From the IMG/VR virus record IMGVR_UViG_3300032237_000809, positions 61,504 to 125,503 of that record: a DNA stretch of 64,000 nucleotides. One strand, written 5' to 3'. The notes under the pieces were generated by a model that saw only the letters and a list, made by a program, of their open reading frames with translations, was not told where the DNA came from and made no database searches. Positions 7,080 through 62,772 of the stretch are shown here, piece by piece. The stretch is from a virus. Taxonomy: Duplodnaviria > Caudoviricetes. The first letter of the stretch is position 1. Each line of letters opens with the position of its first letter. Both the position numbers and the translations under genes were made by a program.

Positions 7080-7653
7080 AGTAGTTACAAATGAATCACG
7101 TTTAGAAGTTTATTGTTATAGAACTTTTCTTGATTTTGAAAATTTAAAAGTTCTTGATTTGTGGGAAAAAAATAGAAATAATACGGATGTAGTTCGATCA
7201 ATTACAAGACCTTTTTATGACCTAGTTCATTCTTTATCAGTTCCTTCAGGATTTATTACCGAAAGAGCATTAGAAAAAAAGCGAATGGATAATACATGGG
7301 TAATATGTAAAGATCATTGCTATTCTCCACAATTCATTTATCAAATGCTTATGGATAAGCATGAATTGTATATAAATGATTATGATAAGTATTTTAAAAT
7401 ATTTAAAGTTGCCTGTACTACAATTGATATTTTGTCTGAACAGAATAAAAGTTTGTCGCTGTTGACTTCCAATAGAAAGGGTAAATATAAAGTTTATGTT
7501 CCAACCGATAAAAAATATCAATATTTGGACATCAAACTTGTATCAAGAAATTATGGAAGGCAATGGTATAATAAACCAATAAATCCTGTTGATAATTATA
7601 TCGTAACTCCACAGGAACTTTTGGATTATGAAAAAGGATTTTTGGTAAATTAA
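7066..7653 (+). CDS. Hypothetical protein
   Basis: 195-aa ORF in operon; weak DH...N pattern only. Confidence 0.55.
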   Translation: MKRIEVVTNESRLEVYCYRTFLDFENLKVLDLWEKNRNNTDVVRSITRPFYDLVHSLSVPSGFITERALEKKRMDNTWVICKDHCYSPQFIYQMLMDKHELYINDYDKYFKIFKVACTTIDILSEQNKSLSLLTSNRKGKYKVYVPTDKKYQYLDIKLVSRNYGRQWYNKPINPVDNYIVTPQELLDYEKGFLVN

Positions 7654-7654
7654 T

Positions 7655-8713
7655 ATGTTATCTATTGAAAATGCAGTTTGGGCAGCAGACCAATTTATAC
7701 AATATTATTCTAAGTTTAATCGTATAGATGATTATCTTAGATATGTCAAACAGAGTAGAATGGGAAATGCTTCTGGTAAATTATTTGGTCCAGAGGATGA
7801 TATTTTTTCAAACTTTGATATTCATCCTAGGGATATGTCATTTTCAATTCATATCGTAGATACTAATCCAAAAACAACATCAAAATATAATCAAGATCTT
7901 TATTCTGAAATTTTAACCGATACTGCTTCAAATCCTATTGAGGAGGCAATTCCTGGTAGAACGTTGAAATGGATTGTAACTGAAGATACCTCAAATAAAA
8001 TAATTGGAGTAGTTCGATTTGGATCTCCAACTATAAATTCAAAACCAAGAAATGATTATTTTGGAGAAGTTATTTCACTTTCCCGAATTAATAGTGAATT
8101 TGTAATGGGATTTAATATTGTCCCCGTTCAACCTTTTGGTTACAATTATCTTGGTGGAAAACTCTTAGCTCTTTTAGCATCTTCTAATGAATTCAAGCGA
8201 CAATTTGATGGAAAATATGGAGTTAATCTTCAATACTTTGAAACAACTTCATTATACGGTACAACGAAAGGGGTATCCATGTATGATGGCCTTAAACCTT
8301 ATATTCGACACATAGGAGATACTGAAAGTAATTTCCTTCCACTCTTTCATGATGACTATTTTAAAGAGATGTTCTGGTGGTTTAATAATACTGCTAATGG
8401 TGGGGAAAGACTCATTTCAGCAGATAAATCATCAAAAAAATTAAAGATTCAAACTAAGATGATTTCCATCATCAAAAATTCTTTGAAGAATCATTCAAAG
8501 TTGGATGAATTTAATTCATGTATTGAACATGCAAAAACATTGACAGAAAAAAAGAGATATTATCTTTCTAAATTTGGATATGAACCTGAAGAAGTTATTC
8601 AGTGGTGGAAAAATAAAGCATCCAAAAGATATGAAAAACTTAAATCTGATGGTCGTTTAAGAACGGAACTTGAACTGTGGAAACATGATAATGATTTGGA
8701 GATTATTCGATGA
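7655..8713 (+). CDS. DUF4338 (DruA-like) domain protein
   Basis: PGR...IIG...GSP....PR, PFGYNYLGGKLLALL, ETTSLYG motifs. Confidence 0.65.
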   Translation: MLSIENAVWAADQFIQYYSKFNRIDDYLRYVKQSRMGNASGKLFGPEDDIFSNFDIHPRDMSFSIHIVDTNPKTTSKYNQDLYSEILTDTASNPIEEAIPGRTLKWIVTEDTSNKIIGVVRFGSPTINSKPRNDYFGEVISLSRINSEFVMGFNIVPVQPFGYNYLGGKLLALLASSNEFKRQFDGKYGVNLQYFETTSLYGTTKGVSMYDGLKPYIRHIGDTESNFLPLFHDDYFKEMFWWFNNTANGGERLISADKSSKKLKIQTKMISIIKNSLKNHSKLDEFNSCIEHAKTLTEKKRYYLSKFGYEPEEVIQWWKNKASKRYEKLKSDGRLRTELELWKHDNDLEIIR

Positions 8714-58537: not shown

Positions 58538-58660
58538 ATGAAAAACTTTGGATTTACTGAATTTAGTGAAAAATTAAATGGAAGATTTGCCATGATTGGA
58601 TTTGTTGCTGCTGTTGGTGCTTATGCACTTACCGGACAAATTATTCCTGGAATTTGGTGA
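58538..58660 (+). CDS. hli: High-light-inducible protein (40 aa)
   Basis: MKNFGFTEFSEKLNGRFAMIGFVAAVGAYALTGQIIPGIW*; missed by ORF track. Confidence 0.9.
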   Translation: MKNFGFTEFSEKLNGRFAMIGFVAAVGAYALTGQIIPGIW

Positions 58661-59393: not shown

Positions 59394-59427
59394 ATACATA
59401 TGGAAGTCAGGAAATCCGGACATTCAG

Positions 59428-59500
59428 GTGCTTACCGAGACTTTGCACTATAAATACGTCTCTCATATCTTCTCTAGGGGTGAGAAGAAATACTAAACAC
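59428..59500 (+). ncRNA. PhotoRC-II-like psbA leader RNA (tentative)
   Basis: GTGC/GCAC hairpin whose loop GAGAC can pair with downstream GTCTC; second hairpin; position in psbA 5' UTR. Confidence 0.55.
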
Positions 59501-59539
59501 GTTCGTCCCTACGAACTTTTTCTACCCTTTTTTTCAAAT

Positions 59540-60095
59540 ATGACTGCTACAATTGCTACACGTTCACAAAGTAATGTCTGGAATGACTTTTGTTCCTGGG
59601 TTACTTCTACGAACAATCGTTTATATGTGGGATGGTTTGGAGTATTACTTATTCCAACAGTTTTAACCGCCACTATTTGTTTTATTCTTGCTTTTATTGC
59701 TGCACCACCAACAGACCTAGACGGAATTAGGGAGGCGGTATCTGGTTCCTTAATGTATGGAAATAACATAATTTCCGGTTCAGTGATTCCGAGTTCAAAT
59801 GCTATAGGTTTGCATCTGTACCCGATTTGGGAAGCACAAACTCTAGAAGAATGGTTATACAATGGAGGTGAATATCAACTCATTGTTTTCCATTTTATGA
59901 TTGCCATCTATGCATATATGGGTCGTGAATGGGAACTTTCATATAGGTTATCAATGCGTCCTTGGATTTGTGTTGCCTACAGTGCTCCTGTTGCTGCTGC
60001 TACTGCTATTTTCCTCGCTTATCCAATTTCACAAGGTTCATTTTCTGATGGATTTCCTTTGGGAATTTCGGGTCAATTTAATTTTATGTTAGTGT
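59540..60095 (+). CDS. psbA: Photosystem II D1, exon 1 (aa 1-185 + 1 nt)
   Basis: [23 protein letters not shown]; exons 556+436+16+72 = 1080 nt = 359 aa + stop. Confidence 0.95.
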
Positions 60096-60976
60096 CAGTT
60101 TGAGGCACTCCTGGAAAGTAATTTCCTTGGCTAAACAGGGTGAACTGCTGGAACCCTAAGTTATATTGCATTCCTTCAATATTGTGCTAGTATAAATAAA
60201 AATAAGTTAGCATAATGTTAAATGAGTAAACCACTTTCTTTTGAACATATTCAAAATATTGCCGAATCTAGAAATCATAAATTAATTTCTATGGACGGAT
60301 ATACTTGCGTTAAAAGTAAAATAAAGTTTTTTTGTTTTACTTGCAATAATGAATTTGAAACATCTTTAGCGTCTTATAAAAACTCACCTAAAACAGGTTG
60401 CCCACATTGCAAAAAGAAAAGAATTTCTGAATTGCATACTAATAAACTGGTTTCTTCGCAAACTAGACAAAAATTAAGTAAAAAGGCAACTGGACGAAAA
60501 GGTTCTTTAAAGGGTGTATATGGAAAAAACCATCCATCCTTCAAAGGAACACCAAGTAGAGATTTTCATAATCCCTCAACGGATTATTATATTTGGATAA
60601 ACGCCGTTAGGGAAAGAGTTGGGCGTTATTGTTGCGTCACCGGGTCTAAAAAAGATTTAGTAGTCCACCATTTATATGGTTGGAACGCATATCCAGATTT
60701 AAGATATAATATTACTAATGGAATTGTTTTAACAAAGCAAATTCATAAAGAATTTCACGATAAATATGGGTACGGTAATAATACAAAAGAACAATTTATT
60801 CAATTTTTGAAAGATCAGTATAATATGGAAATCAGCATCCAAGTTGGAGGTACACCTCCAAAAGGTTCAGAGACTACTGGAGAGGTTTAGTCCTCTTAAT
60901 AACCAGAATAAGCGCCCTGCCCCCATTATGGGGTGATGATATAGTCCACTCCCTTACGAAAGTCTGGGGTAAAGTG
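60096..60976 (+). mobile_element. Group I intron 1 (881 nt) with HNH ORF
   Basis: P1 AGUGU/GCACU with U.G at splice site; P GAACTGCTGGAA, Q AATCAGCATCC, R GTTCAGAGACTA, S ATGATATAGTCC; terminal G; splicing restores V-F186-Q. Confidence 0.92.
60222..60890 (+). CDS. Intron-encoded HNH homing endonuclease
   Basis: CxxC pairs; VHHL...NGIVL...H..FH..YG; TATAAATA at 60191-60198. Confidence 0.88.
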   Translation: MSKPLSFEHIQNIAESRNHKLISMDGYTCVKSKIKFFCFTCNNEFETSLASYKNSPKTGCPHCKKKRISELHTNKLVSSQTRQKLSKKATGRKGSLKGVYGKNHPSFKGTPSRDFHNPSTDYYIWINAVRERVGRYCCVTGSKKDLVVHHLYGWNAYPDLRYNITNGIVLTKQIHKEFHDKYGYGNNTKEQFIQFLKDQYNMEISIQVGGTPPKGSETTGEV

Positions 60977-61412
60977 TTCAGGCTGAACATAATATTCTAA
61001 TGAATCCGTTTCATATGTTGGGAGTTGCTGGCGTATTTGGTGGTGCATTAATCAGTGCAACTCATGGCTCACTTGTAACATCTTCAATTGTTCGTGAAAC
61101 AACGGAAAATGAATCTCAAAATTATGGATATAAATTTGGACAAGAAGAAGAGACCTATTCGTTGGTAGCCGCACACGGGTATCTGGGCCGTCTTCTGTTC
61201 CAATACGCATCCTTTAACAATAGCCGTTCATTACACTTTGTAATGGCTGCACTACCTGTTATTGGTATTTGGTTTGCCGCTTGTGGTATCTTTATGTCTG
61301 GTTTTAATTTGAATGGATTTAATTTCGTTCAGAGTGTTCAAGACTCACAGGGGCATCCTATTCCCACTTGGGCGGACGTATTGAACCGTGCTGGACTGGG
61401 AATGGAAGTGAT
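60977..61412 (+). CDS. psbA: D1 exon 2 (aa 186-331)
   Basis: [31 protein letters not shown]. Confidence 0.95.
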
Positions 61413-61666
61413 TTCCTAAATGTAGTCACCCTGGAATAGGAATATTCCTTGACGAAACTGGGTTAAACGGGGAAACTCTCAAGTAGACAATCCCGTACCA
61501 ATCCGAAGAGGACATAGGTTCTTCGGCAGGTCTAACGACTAGGTAGTGAGTTCCAACAATAATCTACCCACGAATGCCCAGCATCCAGAACGGATGAAGA
61601 GATAGTCTGGACTTACTAGCGATAGTAAGAAGTAAGAAATAAAGAGTTCTTACGATAACAACAACG
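61413..61666 (+). mobile_element. Group I intron 2 (254 nt, no ORF)
   Basis: P1 GUGAU/GUCAC; R-like AACGACTA, S GAAGAGATAGTC; terminal G; restores AT|G (M331). Confidence 0.92.
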
Positions 61667-61682
61667 GCATGAACGCAACGCT
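61667..61682 (+). CDS. psbA: D1 exon 3, 16-nt micro-exon ((M)HERNA)
   Basis: G CAT GAA CGC AAC GCT. Confidence 0.92.
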
Positions 61683-61940
61683 AGATTTGTTGGTGTTGGT
61701 ATTCAGTAATGAATATAAGTAAAATCGGGTTAAACGGGGAAACTCTCAAGTAGACAATCCCGTACCAAGTCAGAAAGGGTTAAAGTTTTCTGAAAGGTCT
61801 AACGACTAGGTAGTGAGTCCCAACAATAATCTACCCACGAATGCCCGACTCCTTAATAAACTTTAAGGATGAAGAGATAGTCTGAACTTATTGGCGACAG
61901 TAAGAAGTAAGAAATAAAGAGTTCTTACGATAACATATTG
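61683..61940 (+). mobile_element. Group I intron 3 (258 nt, no ORF)
   Basis: P1 CAACGCU/GGUGUUG; core near-identical to intron 2; terminal G. Confidence 0.92.
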
Positions 61941-62012
61941 CACAATTTCCCTCTTGACCTTGCTAGCGTAGAAGCAACTCCTGTTGCTCTAACAGCACCG
62001 TCAATCGGTTGA
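61941..62012 (+). CDS. psbA: D1 exon 4
   Basis: HNFPLDLA SVEATPVALTAPSIG*. Confidence 0.95.
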   Translation, partial: HNFPLDLASVEATPVALTAPSIG

Positions 62013-62079: not shown

Positions 62080-62772
62080 ATGGAAACTTATGAGAGTTTT
62101 ATGAAGGGAACTTATACCGCTAATGACCTAAAAGAACTCTGTGAAAATAGAGGTTTGGAATATATTGGAGAAATAAGAACACATACTAAAAGAGAAAAAA
62201 TAAAGGTATATTGTGAATGTTCTGGAGAACGAGAAGTATTAGTTTCTGGATTGAAGCATAGTAATTATTGTTGTCGTAGGAGAGCGAAACTTGGAGAAAA
62301 TAATCCTGCCCATCAAAAAGCACCCTGGAATAAAGGTAAAAAGTGTCCTGGAATTGGTGGGAGACCTGAAGGAGTGAAAAACTCCAAACCATATAGTCAA
62401 GAAACATTAGAAAAGTATTCCCAAGCAAGAAAAAGAATAACTAAAAACGGACAATCTTGGTCTGGATTTCAAAGACCTCAAGATGAAAATAGACCTGATA
62501 AACTTTATTTTATAAAACTCTATAATGGTAAGTATAAGGTCGGTAGGTCTTATAAAGGTTGGTTATATCGCAAGAAAGAAACTGCCGAACTTCTTGGTGA
62601 GTGGTCTGGAAAATCTATAGATATTTGGAACTTGGAAAGGAAAGTTCTAAATGAGTTTTCTTCTTATAAAGCACAACTAACCGAAATGAGTATGGGTCGT
62701 GGAATGACCGAACATTTTATAGATACTTTACCAATTCAAGAAGTAATTTCCTTTATAGAAAAATGCTCATAA
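62080..62772 (+). CDS. Free-standing GIY-YIG-superfamily (T5orf172-like) endonuclease
   Basis: Cys cluster, GENNP..PWNKG; KLYFI...YKVGRS...R...LE...GMTEHF; TATAAATA at 62069-62076; start may be 62101. Confidence 0.65.
   Translation: METYESFMKGTYTANDLKELCENRGLEYIGEIRTHTKREKIKVYCECSGEREVLVSGLKHSNYCCRRRAKLGENNPAHQKAPWNKGKKCPGIGGRPEGVKNSKPYSQETLEKYSQARKRITKNGQSWSGFQRPQDENRPDKLYFIKLYNGKYKVGRSYKGWLYRKKETAELLGEWSGKSIDIWNLERKVLNEFSSYKAQLTEMSMGRGMTEHFIDTLPIQEVISFIEKCS

Follow-up and report, generated by a model that had tools for sequence, protein, structure and literature searches.

Few known proteins are as conserved as the D1 protein of photosystem II (PSII), in which positions such as G164, M172, T179, M214, and F255 are usually studied through laboratory mutants only. 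M172 and T179 normally make ChlD1 the lowest-energy and most easily oxidised pigment. For Synechocystis, Schlodder et al. reportedly found in 2008 that D1-T179H and T179V mutants remain active while ChlD1 absorption shifts. Met172 sits at a distance of 3.7 Å from ChlD1, whose excited-state energy it decreases by 10 meV, and Thr179 hydrogen-bonds the ChlD1-ligating water (PMC7368266); these are the two residues reported to reduce the excitation energy of ChlD1 in particular and to make ChlD1+ more stable. Natural isoforms exist in which M172 is replaced, by Leu in the microaerobic PsbA2/D1' (PMC7368266) and by Leu in far-red D1, where Tyr and Thr also replace F119 and A154 near ChlD1 (PMC12121499), and position 172 is therefore naturally tuned. 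On the acceptor side, the QB head group has its main contacts in F255 and F265 and the tail is contacted by F211, while atrazine touches M214 and F255 (PMC4030317). Among the hydrophobic residues that are conserved along the walls of the QB niche are F211, F255, F274, and L275 (PMC8398153). The D1INT isoform (Sheridan et al. 2020, cited in PMC9740203 and PMC12096807) is marked by W126 and W260 (PMC9740203).

Canonical cyanophage D1, as in the T4-like cyanomyoviruses S-PM2 and S-RIM8, is one of the closest described systems to the locus studied here, which lies in a 64,000-nt stretch (the window) of IMG/VR virus record IMGVR_UViG_3300032237_000809. Both have a phage psbA with a PhotoRC-II leader and hli nearby, group I introns and free-standing endonucleases around the gene, E130, the full ligand set, and equal purifying selection. 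Unlike canonical cyanophage D1, the window lineage has 24 replacements of its own, concentrated around ChlD1 and QB. At many canonical loci psbD is no further than about 1 kb away, but none lies beside the window psbA.

The nearest isolate by DNA polymerase (85.8% amino-acid identity) was the Serangoonvirus S-SRM01, isolated from fresh water in Singapore (PMC8557907). Like the window virus, S-SRM01 has a large genome, hli upstream of psbA, and a psbA split by several introns, one holding an endonuclease ORF; its complete genome, too, showed no psbD. However, its introns follow H92, A250, and R334, other positions than in the window gene, and its D1 is canonical at P66, P111, G164, M172, T179, H195, F211, M214, F255, F274, L275, W278, and N303. 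That S-SRM01 is a reservoir phage suggests a freshwater setting for the window virus; a full-text search with six sample numbers of related IMG/VR records gave no match. We found no psbD in the virus records G000 (125 kb), G001 (92 kb), G002 (48 kb), G003, or G004, which are fragments estimated to be 22–58% complete.

Gene structure

Rfam searches and translation of the joined exons confirmed that three group I introns split psbA and that the predicted spliced product is a complete D1. The exons join to 1080 nt, encoding a stop and 359 amino acids, the length given in the sequence-only reading. Introns were called with Rfam RF00028, with introns 2 and 3 above the gathering score and the ORF-bearing intron 1 below it. 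The features are, in order:

59415–59501, + strand: 5' leader of psbA, with a PhotoRC-II RNA motif (Rfam RF01717, 51.7 bits with the gathering score at 39; E 3.7e-7)
59540–60095, + strand: psbA exon 1, codons 1–185 and base 1 of codon 186 (PF00124, 159.7 bits; translation)
Within exon 1, + strand: variant sites A66, E111, S138, S164 (60029–60031), F172 (60053–60055), and Q179 (60074–60076) (translation)
60096–60976, + strand: group I intron 1, 881 nt (RF00028, 35.4 bits, E 1e-6)
60222–60890, + strand: HNH-type endonuclease ORF inside intron 1 (weak HNH_2 and zinc-ribbon matches)
60977–61412, + strand: psbA exon 2, remainder of codon 186 to bases 1–2 of codon 331 (PF00124, 116.6 bits; translation)
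Within exon 2, first part, + strand: variant sites N195 (61003–61005), I211 (61051–61053), T214 (61060–61062), and S247 (61159–61161) (translation, site tables)
Within exon 2, second part, + strand: variant sites L255 (61183–61185), V274 and M275 (61240–61245), L278 (61252–61254), and V303 (61327–61329) (translation, site tables)
61413–61666, + strand: group I intron 2, 254 nt, without ORF, within codon 331 (RF00028, 53.2 bits, E 5e-12)
61667–61682, + strand: micro-exon of 16 nt, last base of M331, then H332, E333, R334, N335, and A336 (joined translation)
61683–61940, + strand: group I intron 3, 258 nt, without ORF, after codon 336 (RF00028, 63.5 bits, E 4e-15)
61941–62012, + strand: psbA exon 4, H337–G359 and stop, with D342, A344, and a 15-residue C-terminal extension (translation)

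A U precedes each of the 5' splice sites and a G closes each intron. The P1 helix of intron 2 places a U·G pair at 61412, and intron 3 has its U·G pair at 61682. Intron 3 is a paralogue of intron 2, judging from the repeated core visible in the raw sequence. The exon 1 protein was 95% identical to that of an intron-less relative, P0009. Downstream of psbA, an endonuclease-like ORF spans 62080–62772.

Retained residues and D1 type

The spliced protein kept 17/17 of the residues that had been listed as retained. The Mn4CaO5 ligands D170, E189, H332, E333, D342, and the A344 C-terminus, with second-shell D61 and H337, were present in both the window protein and its inner clade (see below). YZ (Y161) and H190, the PD1 ligand H198, the iron ligands H215 and H272, and E65 were all kept, as were the QB partners H215, S264, F265, and H252 and the pheophytin partners Y126 and E130, the latter of the high-light type. 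A344 is the putative cleavage point before the C-terminal extension. Both large exons scored far above the PF00124 (Photo_RC) cut-off of 27. In fold, ligands, and C-terminal extension the predicted product matches a water-oxidising standard (G4-type) D1, and its virus record, T4-like genes, and PhotoRC-II leader mark it as cyanophage-encoded.

Other D1 types were rejected. The rogue, sentinel, and super-rogue types (G1, G2; ChlF) require loss of Mn-cluster ligands, all of which are kept here, in agreement with the sequence-only reading, which had set the protein apart from ligand-less rogue D1. Where D1INT is marked by W126 and W260, the protein has Y126 and F260. It retains F119 and A154 and so lacks the markers of far-red D1 (D1FR). 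Of the markers of microaerobic D1' (G3), G80A, F158L, and T286A, the protein has A286 alone, a residue also found in standard D1, and keeps G80 and F158.

Substitutions

All 15 of the substitutions proposed from the sequence were present: P66A, P111E, G138S, G164S, M172F, T179Q, H195N, F211I, M214T, N247S, F255L, F274V, L275M, W278L, and N303V. They had been described as changes at near-invariant positions, and this held for P66, P111, G138, G164, M172, T179, H195, M214, N247, L275, and N303, where 94–100% of 266 other unique D1 sequences had the canonical residue. It held less well for F211, F255, F274, and W278 (79–87%) because these co-vary in a Nostocales paralogue group. The comparison sequences were chosen for their resemblance to the query, which biases the set and makes all of these percentages approximate.

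Among inner-clade sequences, S138 (5/13), S247 (2/13), and V303 (7/13) were not clade-wide. Conversely, A100Q, D103E, V157I, V160A, I248L, I259L, L288C, S291F, M293S, and A294G were clade-wide changes beyond the 15. The signature has 24 positions at which the inner-clade residue occurs in <10% of the 266 other D1 sequences (0/266 for S164, F172, and T214). It is concentrated around ChlD1 and QB; the sequence-only reading was right that the surroundings of both are remodelled. N195, S247, M275, and V303 do match the homologous D2 residues in five viral D2 proteins, as the sequence-only reading had proposed. D2-like convergence or gene conversion was nevertheless rejected as a special signal, since 5/19 departures matched D2 vs a background of 21% in other D1 (p = 0.38).

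Viral lineage and modularity

Phylogeny resolved a variant clade of 20 rows (SH-aLRT 99) containing an inner group of 15 rows (SH-aLRT 99). The inner group had G164S, M172F, T179Q, and H195N/S together with F211I/V, M214T, F255L, F274V, L275M, and W278L/F, while the outer group had the QB-side set only. At 90% identity the variant clade comprised clusters of 85, 27, 25, 41, and 3 members (>180 in total), on contigs reaching 282 kb; those behind P0220, P0233, P0237, P0239, and P0240 measure 200–280 kb. The window gene is therefore not a one-off, and the changes are marks of a whole viral D1 lineage and not peculiar to this gene. Of the two refuting conditions named with the sequence-only reading, that such changes be common among freshwater phage D1 is borne out in one sense, while a dN/dS near 1 indicating decay is not (see Selection).

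Natural chimeras have one half only: in P0011 the N-half is variant and the C-half canonical, and P0074 and P0029 are of the reverse type. The ChlD1-side and QB-side changes are thus independent modules. Every variant-clade locus taken from IMG/VR was a viral contig, gene neighbourhoods around psbA were phage-like in L003, L005, and L007, and the lineage was seen on phage-like contigs only. A literature search found no published description of these residues as a signature of viral D1; psbA clades of freshwater viruses have been surveyed by PCR, and the lineage may be among them.

About 25 Nostocales loci carry I/V211, L255, W260, V274, and L278. These D1INT-like paralogues share with the phage lineage the same four aromatic-to-aliphatic changes (F211I/V, F255L, F274V, and W278L) and the full ligand set, but they are cyanobacterial, have Q130, W260, M214, and L275, and have a canonical donor side (G164, M172, T179, and H195). 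The overlap may reflect convergence or old recombination. In the latter case the QB-side half would have been inherited from a Nostocales D1INT-like paralogue, with M214T and L275M added in the phage lineage. Half-gene recombination is evident in psbA from the chimeras P0011 and P0074, and a joint clade was not rejected for residues 196–344 (log-likelihood difference 1.9, p-AU 0.46). For the full-length protein, however, the joint clade was rejected (log-likelihood difference 104, p-AU 0.0007), and the free C-half tree placed the Nostocales group within cyanobacterial D1, apart from the phage clade (97 support). Moreover, the phage proteins lack W260, T214 and M275 are absent from the Nostocales group, and the joint-clade test was post hoc, the group having been named only after the first tree. 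We consider a Nostocales origin of the QB-side half unlikely.

Genome context and host search

The source is an uncultured T4-like cyanophage, and the record includes genes for a T4-like DNA polymerase, a helicase, and a ribonucleotide reductase. D1 identity to the 512 psbA-bearing GenBank phage records was 78–83%, the best being 80–83% and none >83%, and when the entire locus was compared by megablast with GenBank phages, the sole match was 248 nt long at 75% identity.

Since phage psbA is ultimately host-derived, the variant might be nothing more than the usual D1 of a cyanobacterial host that has not been sampled, copied recently, and freshwater picocyanobacteria are under-sampled enough that a host lineage with such a D1 might be missing. 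The best cyanobacterial match among 185,579 species genomes was nonetheless only 78% identical, and all genomes of freshwater Cyanobium, Synechococcus, and Vulcanococcus that the search returned had the canonical D1 residues. All contexts examined were phage-like, and saturation at synonymous sites shows how deep the clade is. Host mimicry is accordingly improbable in our judgement.

Introns and endonucleases

The sequence-only reading had also raised escape from homing endonucleases, by which the substitutions would destroy recognition sites. Homing elements are abundant at the locus (the three introns, the intronic HNH ORF, and the endonuclease-like ORF downstream), some intron-less loci have a GIY-YIG ORF downstream, and intron-less relatives differ at the 3' insertion sites (I331, S336, and Q338). 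However, the window allele is already intron-occupied and has the canonical MHERNAHNF at these sites, the 15 changes are common to intron-less and intron-bearing alleles, and 0/15 fall at insertion sites. Synonymous changes would also have sufficed, without replacing conserved cofactor-pocket residues, and we give escape very little credence. Among the relatives, L014 is uninterrupted across the 185/186 junction (the intron 1 site), intron-less L011 and L003 read MHERNAHNF straight through 331–337, and L014 and L076 appear to carry an intron at the same site as intron 2.

Selection

Median dN/dS was 0.071 in the variant clade (range 0.05–0.16) vs 0.068 in canonical viral D1, and this equality at about 0.07 indicates that the gene is not decaying. 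Synonymous sites were near saturation between subclades, which in so deep a clade implies long evolution within viruses. S164 was encoded by TCA, TCT, TCG, or AGC across the clade, and L255, V274, and L278 were likewise encoded by differing synonymous codons. These codon comparisons indicate that the variant residues changed and were then conserved under intact purifying selection. The weakest explanation, a D1 drifting under relaxed constraint because water oxidation is no longer needed, would fit the many normally fixed positions that have changed, but we dismiss it given these dN/dS values, the clade-wide retention of all ligands, and the conservation of the variant residues themselves through synonymous codon turnover.

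Pocket remodelling and proposed function

The gene most likely encodes a working, selectively maintained D1 of a lineage restricted to phage-like contigs, with its ChlD1 and QB pockets retuned. In infection, this D1 would presumably be translated from spliced mRNA and inserted in the host PSII beside host D2, and the host CtpA protease would cut after A344, as for other phage D1 proteins. All first-shell residues are retained, those of the Mn4CaO5 cluster, YZ/H190, PD1, pheophytin, and non-haem iron as well as those that hydrogen-bond QB, while two second-shell pockets are rebuilt. In the ChlD1/donor-side pocket, M172F and T179Q are accompanied by G164S, H195N/S, V157I, and V160A, a combination that would shift ChlD1 site energy and redox potential. 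In the QB niche, F211I, M214T, F255L, F274V, L275M, and W278L are accompanied by I248L and I259L, so that four aromatic walls become aliphatic, among them F255, the largest contributor to QB head-group binding; these changes would probably alter how tightly QB binds, how it exchanges, its redox potential, and the binding of inhibitors. The likely benefit would be to sustain electron flow or limit photodamage after host D1 repair is shut off. Altered photochemistry, as the sequence-only reading had ventured, is a reasonable inference from the residues, though F255L and M214T could be merely tolerated.

More tentatively, it is possible, at somewhat less than even chances, that an alternative PSII reaction-centre architecture has evolved in phages and is passed between them as two separable modules, with a ChlD1 site without M172 and T179 and a QB niche without aromatic walls. 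If so, PSII in infected cells would differ measurably in primary charge separation and in QB redox and exchange, and would resist QB-site inhibitors. The same QB solution would have arisen independently in Nostocales D1 paralogues, and the phage D1 proteins and their natural chimeras would be a ready-made mutant series for ChlD1 and QB problems.

Nature has fixed these coordinated D1 changes in abundant uncultured phages, with genomes to about 280 kb and with selection as on ordinary D1. Because the natural chimeras part the donor-side from the acceptor-side module, they offer a construct set for relating ChlD1 tuning to charge separation, and aromatic QB walls to quinone affinity, redox potential, and herbicide binding. 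For viral ecology, the lineage is a candidate phage-specific mode of running host photosynthesis, and its QB overlap with the Nostocales D1INT-like paralogues may help explain that orphan isoform.

Position 172 is replaced in the window D1 as it is in PsbA2/D1' and far-red D1, but here by Phe, paired with T179Q. The same residue over ChlD1 is altered as in the Synechocystis T179 mutants, but whereas those are single laboratory mutants, Gln is here naturally fixed together with M172F, G164S, and H195N/S.

Structure of the window psbA

The psbA gene at 59540-62012 had three interruptions, and Rfam placed a group I intron in every gap. All 5' splice sites were preceded by a U, which forms a P1 pair with G, and all introns ended in G. 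Relatives without the respective introns read straight through these junctions: codon 185/186 was uninterrupted in L014, as were residues 331-337 in L011 and L003.

Features of psbA and its flanks in the window
59415-59501: PhotoRC-II motif in the psbA leader
59540-60095, 60977-61412, 61667-61682, 61941-62012: psbA exons; joined, 1080 nt coding for 359 residues and a stop
60222-60890: ORF inside the first intron, with a weak HNH/zinc-ribbon match
3' part of the first intron: group I intron match (Rfam, 35.4 bits, E 1e-6)
61401-61629: group I intron match (Rfam, 53.2 bits, above the gathering score)
61673-61904: group I intron match (Rfam, 63.5 bits, above the gathering score)
62080-62772: endonuclease-like ORF just downstream of psbA (PHROG 681, E 3e-7; no match in Pfam)

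Retained and substituted residues

Standard D1 numbering fits the window protein with zero offset. The sequence-only reading had described a D1 with intact ligands and remodelled ChlD1 and QB sites, and its observations were confirmed while its interpretation was partly supported. Every residue listed as retained was present in the spliced protein (D61, E65, E130, Y161, D170, E189, H190, H198, H215, H252, S264, H272, H332, E333, H337, D342, and A344), as were all 15 substitutions (P66A, P111E, G138S, G164S, M172F, T179Q, H195N, F211I, M214T, N247S, F255L, F274V, L275M, W278L, and N303V). We compared these sites with 266 other unique D1 sequences, which were gathered by similarity to the query and so give approximate percentages. 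The canonical residue occurred in 94-100% of them at positions 66, 111, 138, 164, 172, 179, 195, 214, 247, 275, and 303, and in 79-87% at positions 211, 255, 274, and 278. S164, F172, and T214 occurred in 0/266 of this similarity-gathered set.

A virus-only D1 lineage

Protein searches with exons 1 and 2 recovered full-length relatives of 359-360 aa with 85-92% identity and the same residues, and a scan of IMG/VR added further variant relatives (L008 to L014 and L078/L079). We built a maximum-likelihood tree from 78 D1 sequences. The variants formed a clade of 20 rows (SH-aLRT 99), and the longest internal branch of the tree separated this clade from the ordinary D1 of viruses and cyanobacteria. 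Within the clade, an inner group of 15 rows (support 99) carried a donor-side set (G164S, M172F, T179Q, H195N/S, V157I, and V160A), an acceptor-side set (F211I/V, M214T, I248L, F255L, I259L, F274V, L275M, and W278L/F), and other changes including T58, A66, Q100, E103, E111, C288, F291, S293, and G294. At 24 positions the inner-clade residue was found in <10% of other D1 sequences. The outer group (13 unique sequences) had the acceptor-side set with canonical G164, M172, and T179. Two natural chimeras joined opposite halves: P0011 had an inner-clade N-half (97% identity to L013) and a canonical C-half, and P0074 a canonical N-half (96% identity to L047) and a variant C-half. Each remodelled pocket can therefore occur in nature without the other.

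The residue set of the window marks a lineage, not a one-off. Clusters at 90% identity around five representatives had 85, 27, 25, 41, and 3 members; their contigs reached 282 kb in length, and many members were fragments of 188-323 aa, as intron-split genes would give. The lineage is viral and not host. In a scan of 185,579 prokaryote species, each represented by a single genome, no D1 was >78% identical to the intron-less relative P0009, and the genomes of freshwater Cyanobium, Synechococcus, and Vulcanococcus that it recovered were canonical at all diagnostic sites. Gene neighborhoods around psbA in L003, L005, and L007 were phage-like. In GenBank, the psbA genes of 512 phage records gave at best 80% identity to exon 1 and 82.6% to exon 2. 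The contig of one cyanobacterial-type psbA (L132) belonged to a metagenome-assembled genome assigned to the actinobacterium Pimelobacter simplex, most likely a binning error.

Selection

Decay, which the sequence-only reading had tied to a dN/dS near 1, was excluded. Pairwise dN/dS within the variant clade was 0.05-0.16, with synonymous sites saturated between subclades, and for pairs of comparable synonymous divergence the median was 0.071 vs 0.068 in canonical viral D1. The variant residues were held while their codons changed: S164 was encoded by TCA, TCT, TCG, and AGC, L255 by CTG, TTG, and CTA, and V274 by GTA, GTT, and GTG.

Comparison with known D1 isoforms and D2

The window protein is a cyanophage D1 and no new class of system. 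With its ligands intact it is not a rogue D1, in agreement with the sequence-only reading; Y126 and F260 in place of W126 and W260 ruled out D1INT, retention of F119 and A154 ruled out far-red D1, and that of G80 and F158 ruled out G3 D1. A likeness to D2 had also been suggested. N195, S247, M275, and V303 did match D2, as did L37, but a match at 5 of 19 departures does not exceed the 21% background where other D1 sequences leave the consensus (p = 0.38).

About 25 Nostocales loci (including L092, L093, L096, L103, L114, and L122) code for a D1 paralogue with Q130, I/V211, L255, W260, V274, and L278, which, like the phage clade, exchanges the same four QB-niche aromatics for aliphatic residues. 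A tree forcing the two together was rejected at full length (p-AU 0.0007) and was not rejected for residues 196-344 alone (p-AU 0.46). We prefer convergence, but an old recombination event may account for this likeness. The Nostocales paralogues keep Y126 and are distinct from the W126/W260 form of Fischerella, Chroococcidiopsidaceae, and others (L106, L138, L150, L164, and L166).

Roles of the changed residues

ChlD1 site. Met172 lies 3.7 Å from ChlD1 and stabilizes its excited state by 10 meV, and Thr179 hydrogen-bonds with the network of the water ligating ChlD1 (PMC7368266). Positions 172 and 179 are tabulated as D1/D2 residue pairs that, with the Cl-1 site, lower the ChlD1 excitation energy, and both pairs also stabilize ChlD1+ (PMC7368266). 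Position 172 is Leu in PsbA2 (PMC7368266) and also in far-red D1 (PMC12121499), and is therefore a natural tuning site.

QB site. For the QB head group the largest binding contributions come from F255 and F265, whereas F211 aids tail binding, and atrazine packs on F255 and M214 (PMC4030317). The conserved hydrophobic walls of the niche are F211, L218, F255, F265, L271, F274, and L275 (PMC8398153), of which four of the seven were changed in the window D1. The hydrogen-bonding residues H215, S264, F265, and H252 were kept. From these published roles in ordinary D1 we infer that the window protein would have an altered ChlD1 (site energy, redox potential) and an altered QB site (affinity, rate of exchange, redox potential, binding of inhibitors).

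Genome context and the nearest isolate

The window covers the final 64 kb of an IMG/VR virus record of 125.5 kb, whose estimated completeness is 58%. It has T4-like genes for DNA polymerase, helicase, and ribonucleotide reductase. A 40-aa hli-type (high-light-inducible) ORF with a weak Chloroa_b-bind match lay at 58538-58660, ~0.9 kb upstream of psbA. The isolate with the most similar DNA polymerase was the freshwater phage S-SRM01 (85.8% identity). Its psbA (MW015081.1 207459-209800), published as two partial genes, consisted of four exons and was likewise split by three introns, but at other positions, and it encoded a canonical D1. D1 type thus does not simply track the phage backbone.

Many canonical viral loci had psbD ~1 kb downstream of psbA, unlike the variant records. 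We found no second Photo_RC gene in the window's own record (125 kb), two related records (G001, 92 kb; G002, 48 kb), all three fragmentary, or the complete 241-kb S-SRM01 genome, where psbD was also not found. The variant D1 probably pairs with host D2, a provisional reading given the fragmentary records.

Homing endonucleases and the 3' end of psbA

Endonuclease escape, offered earlier as a reason for the substitutions, did not hold at the listed sites: the window allele was already invaded by introns, and the changes were common to intron-less and intron-bearing relatives. The 3' end differed among alleles. Intron-less inner-clade alleles had I331/S336/Q338 in place of M/A/N, and several of these alleles were followed by a GIY-YIG ORF. 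The motif was seen at 8 loci, all of them inner-clade, and may represent target-site immunity. A GIY-YIG/NUMOD3 endonuclease followed psbA in several variant-clade loci (L005 at 7151-7750, L010, L078, L079, and L008), and L005 was syntenic with the window (psbA, endonuclease, 53-aa ORF, metallophosphoesterase).

The last two window exons (61667-62012) read canonical MHERNAHNF, and the C-terminal tail resembled intron-bearing alleles (L014 and L086), not the closest intron-less relatives. This pattern suggests homing in which the neighboring exon was co-converted on intron gain. The 16-nt micro-exon, coding for the last base of M331 and H332-A336, was flanked by two paralogous ORF-less group I introns (61413-61940). 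Six other viral loci (L014, L017, L029, L070, L075, and L076) also had the window-type ORF 3' of psbA, and four of the six were apparently intron-bearing, L014 and L076 solely at codon 331 of the two 3' sites and L070 and L075 solely after codon 336. The window therefore unites two insertion sites found singly elsewhere. The arrangement of free-standing endonuclease and intron at these loci resembles that of S-PM2. Across the window, L078/L079, L086/L087, L058, and S-SRM01 (L169-L171), psbA had at least six intron insertion sites: after H92, codon 186, after A250, codon 331, after R334, and after A336.
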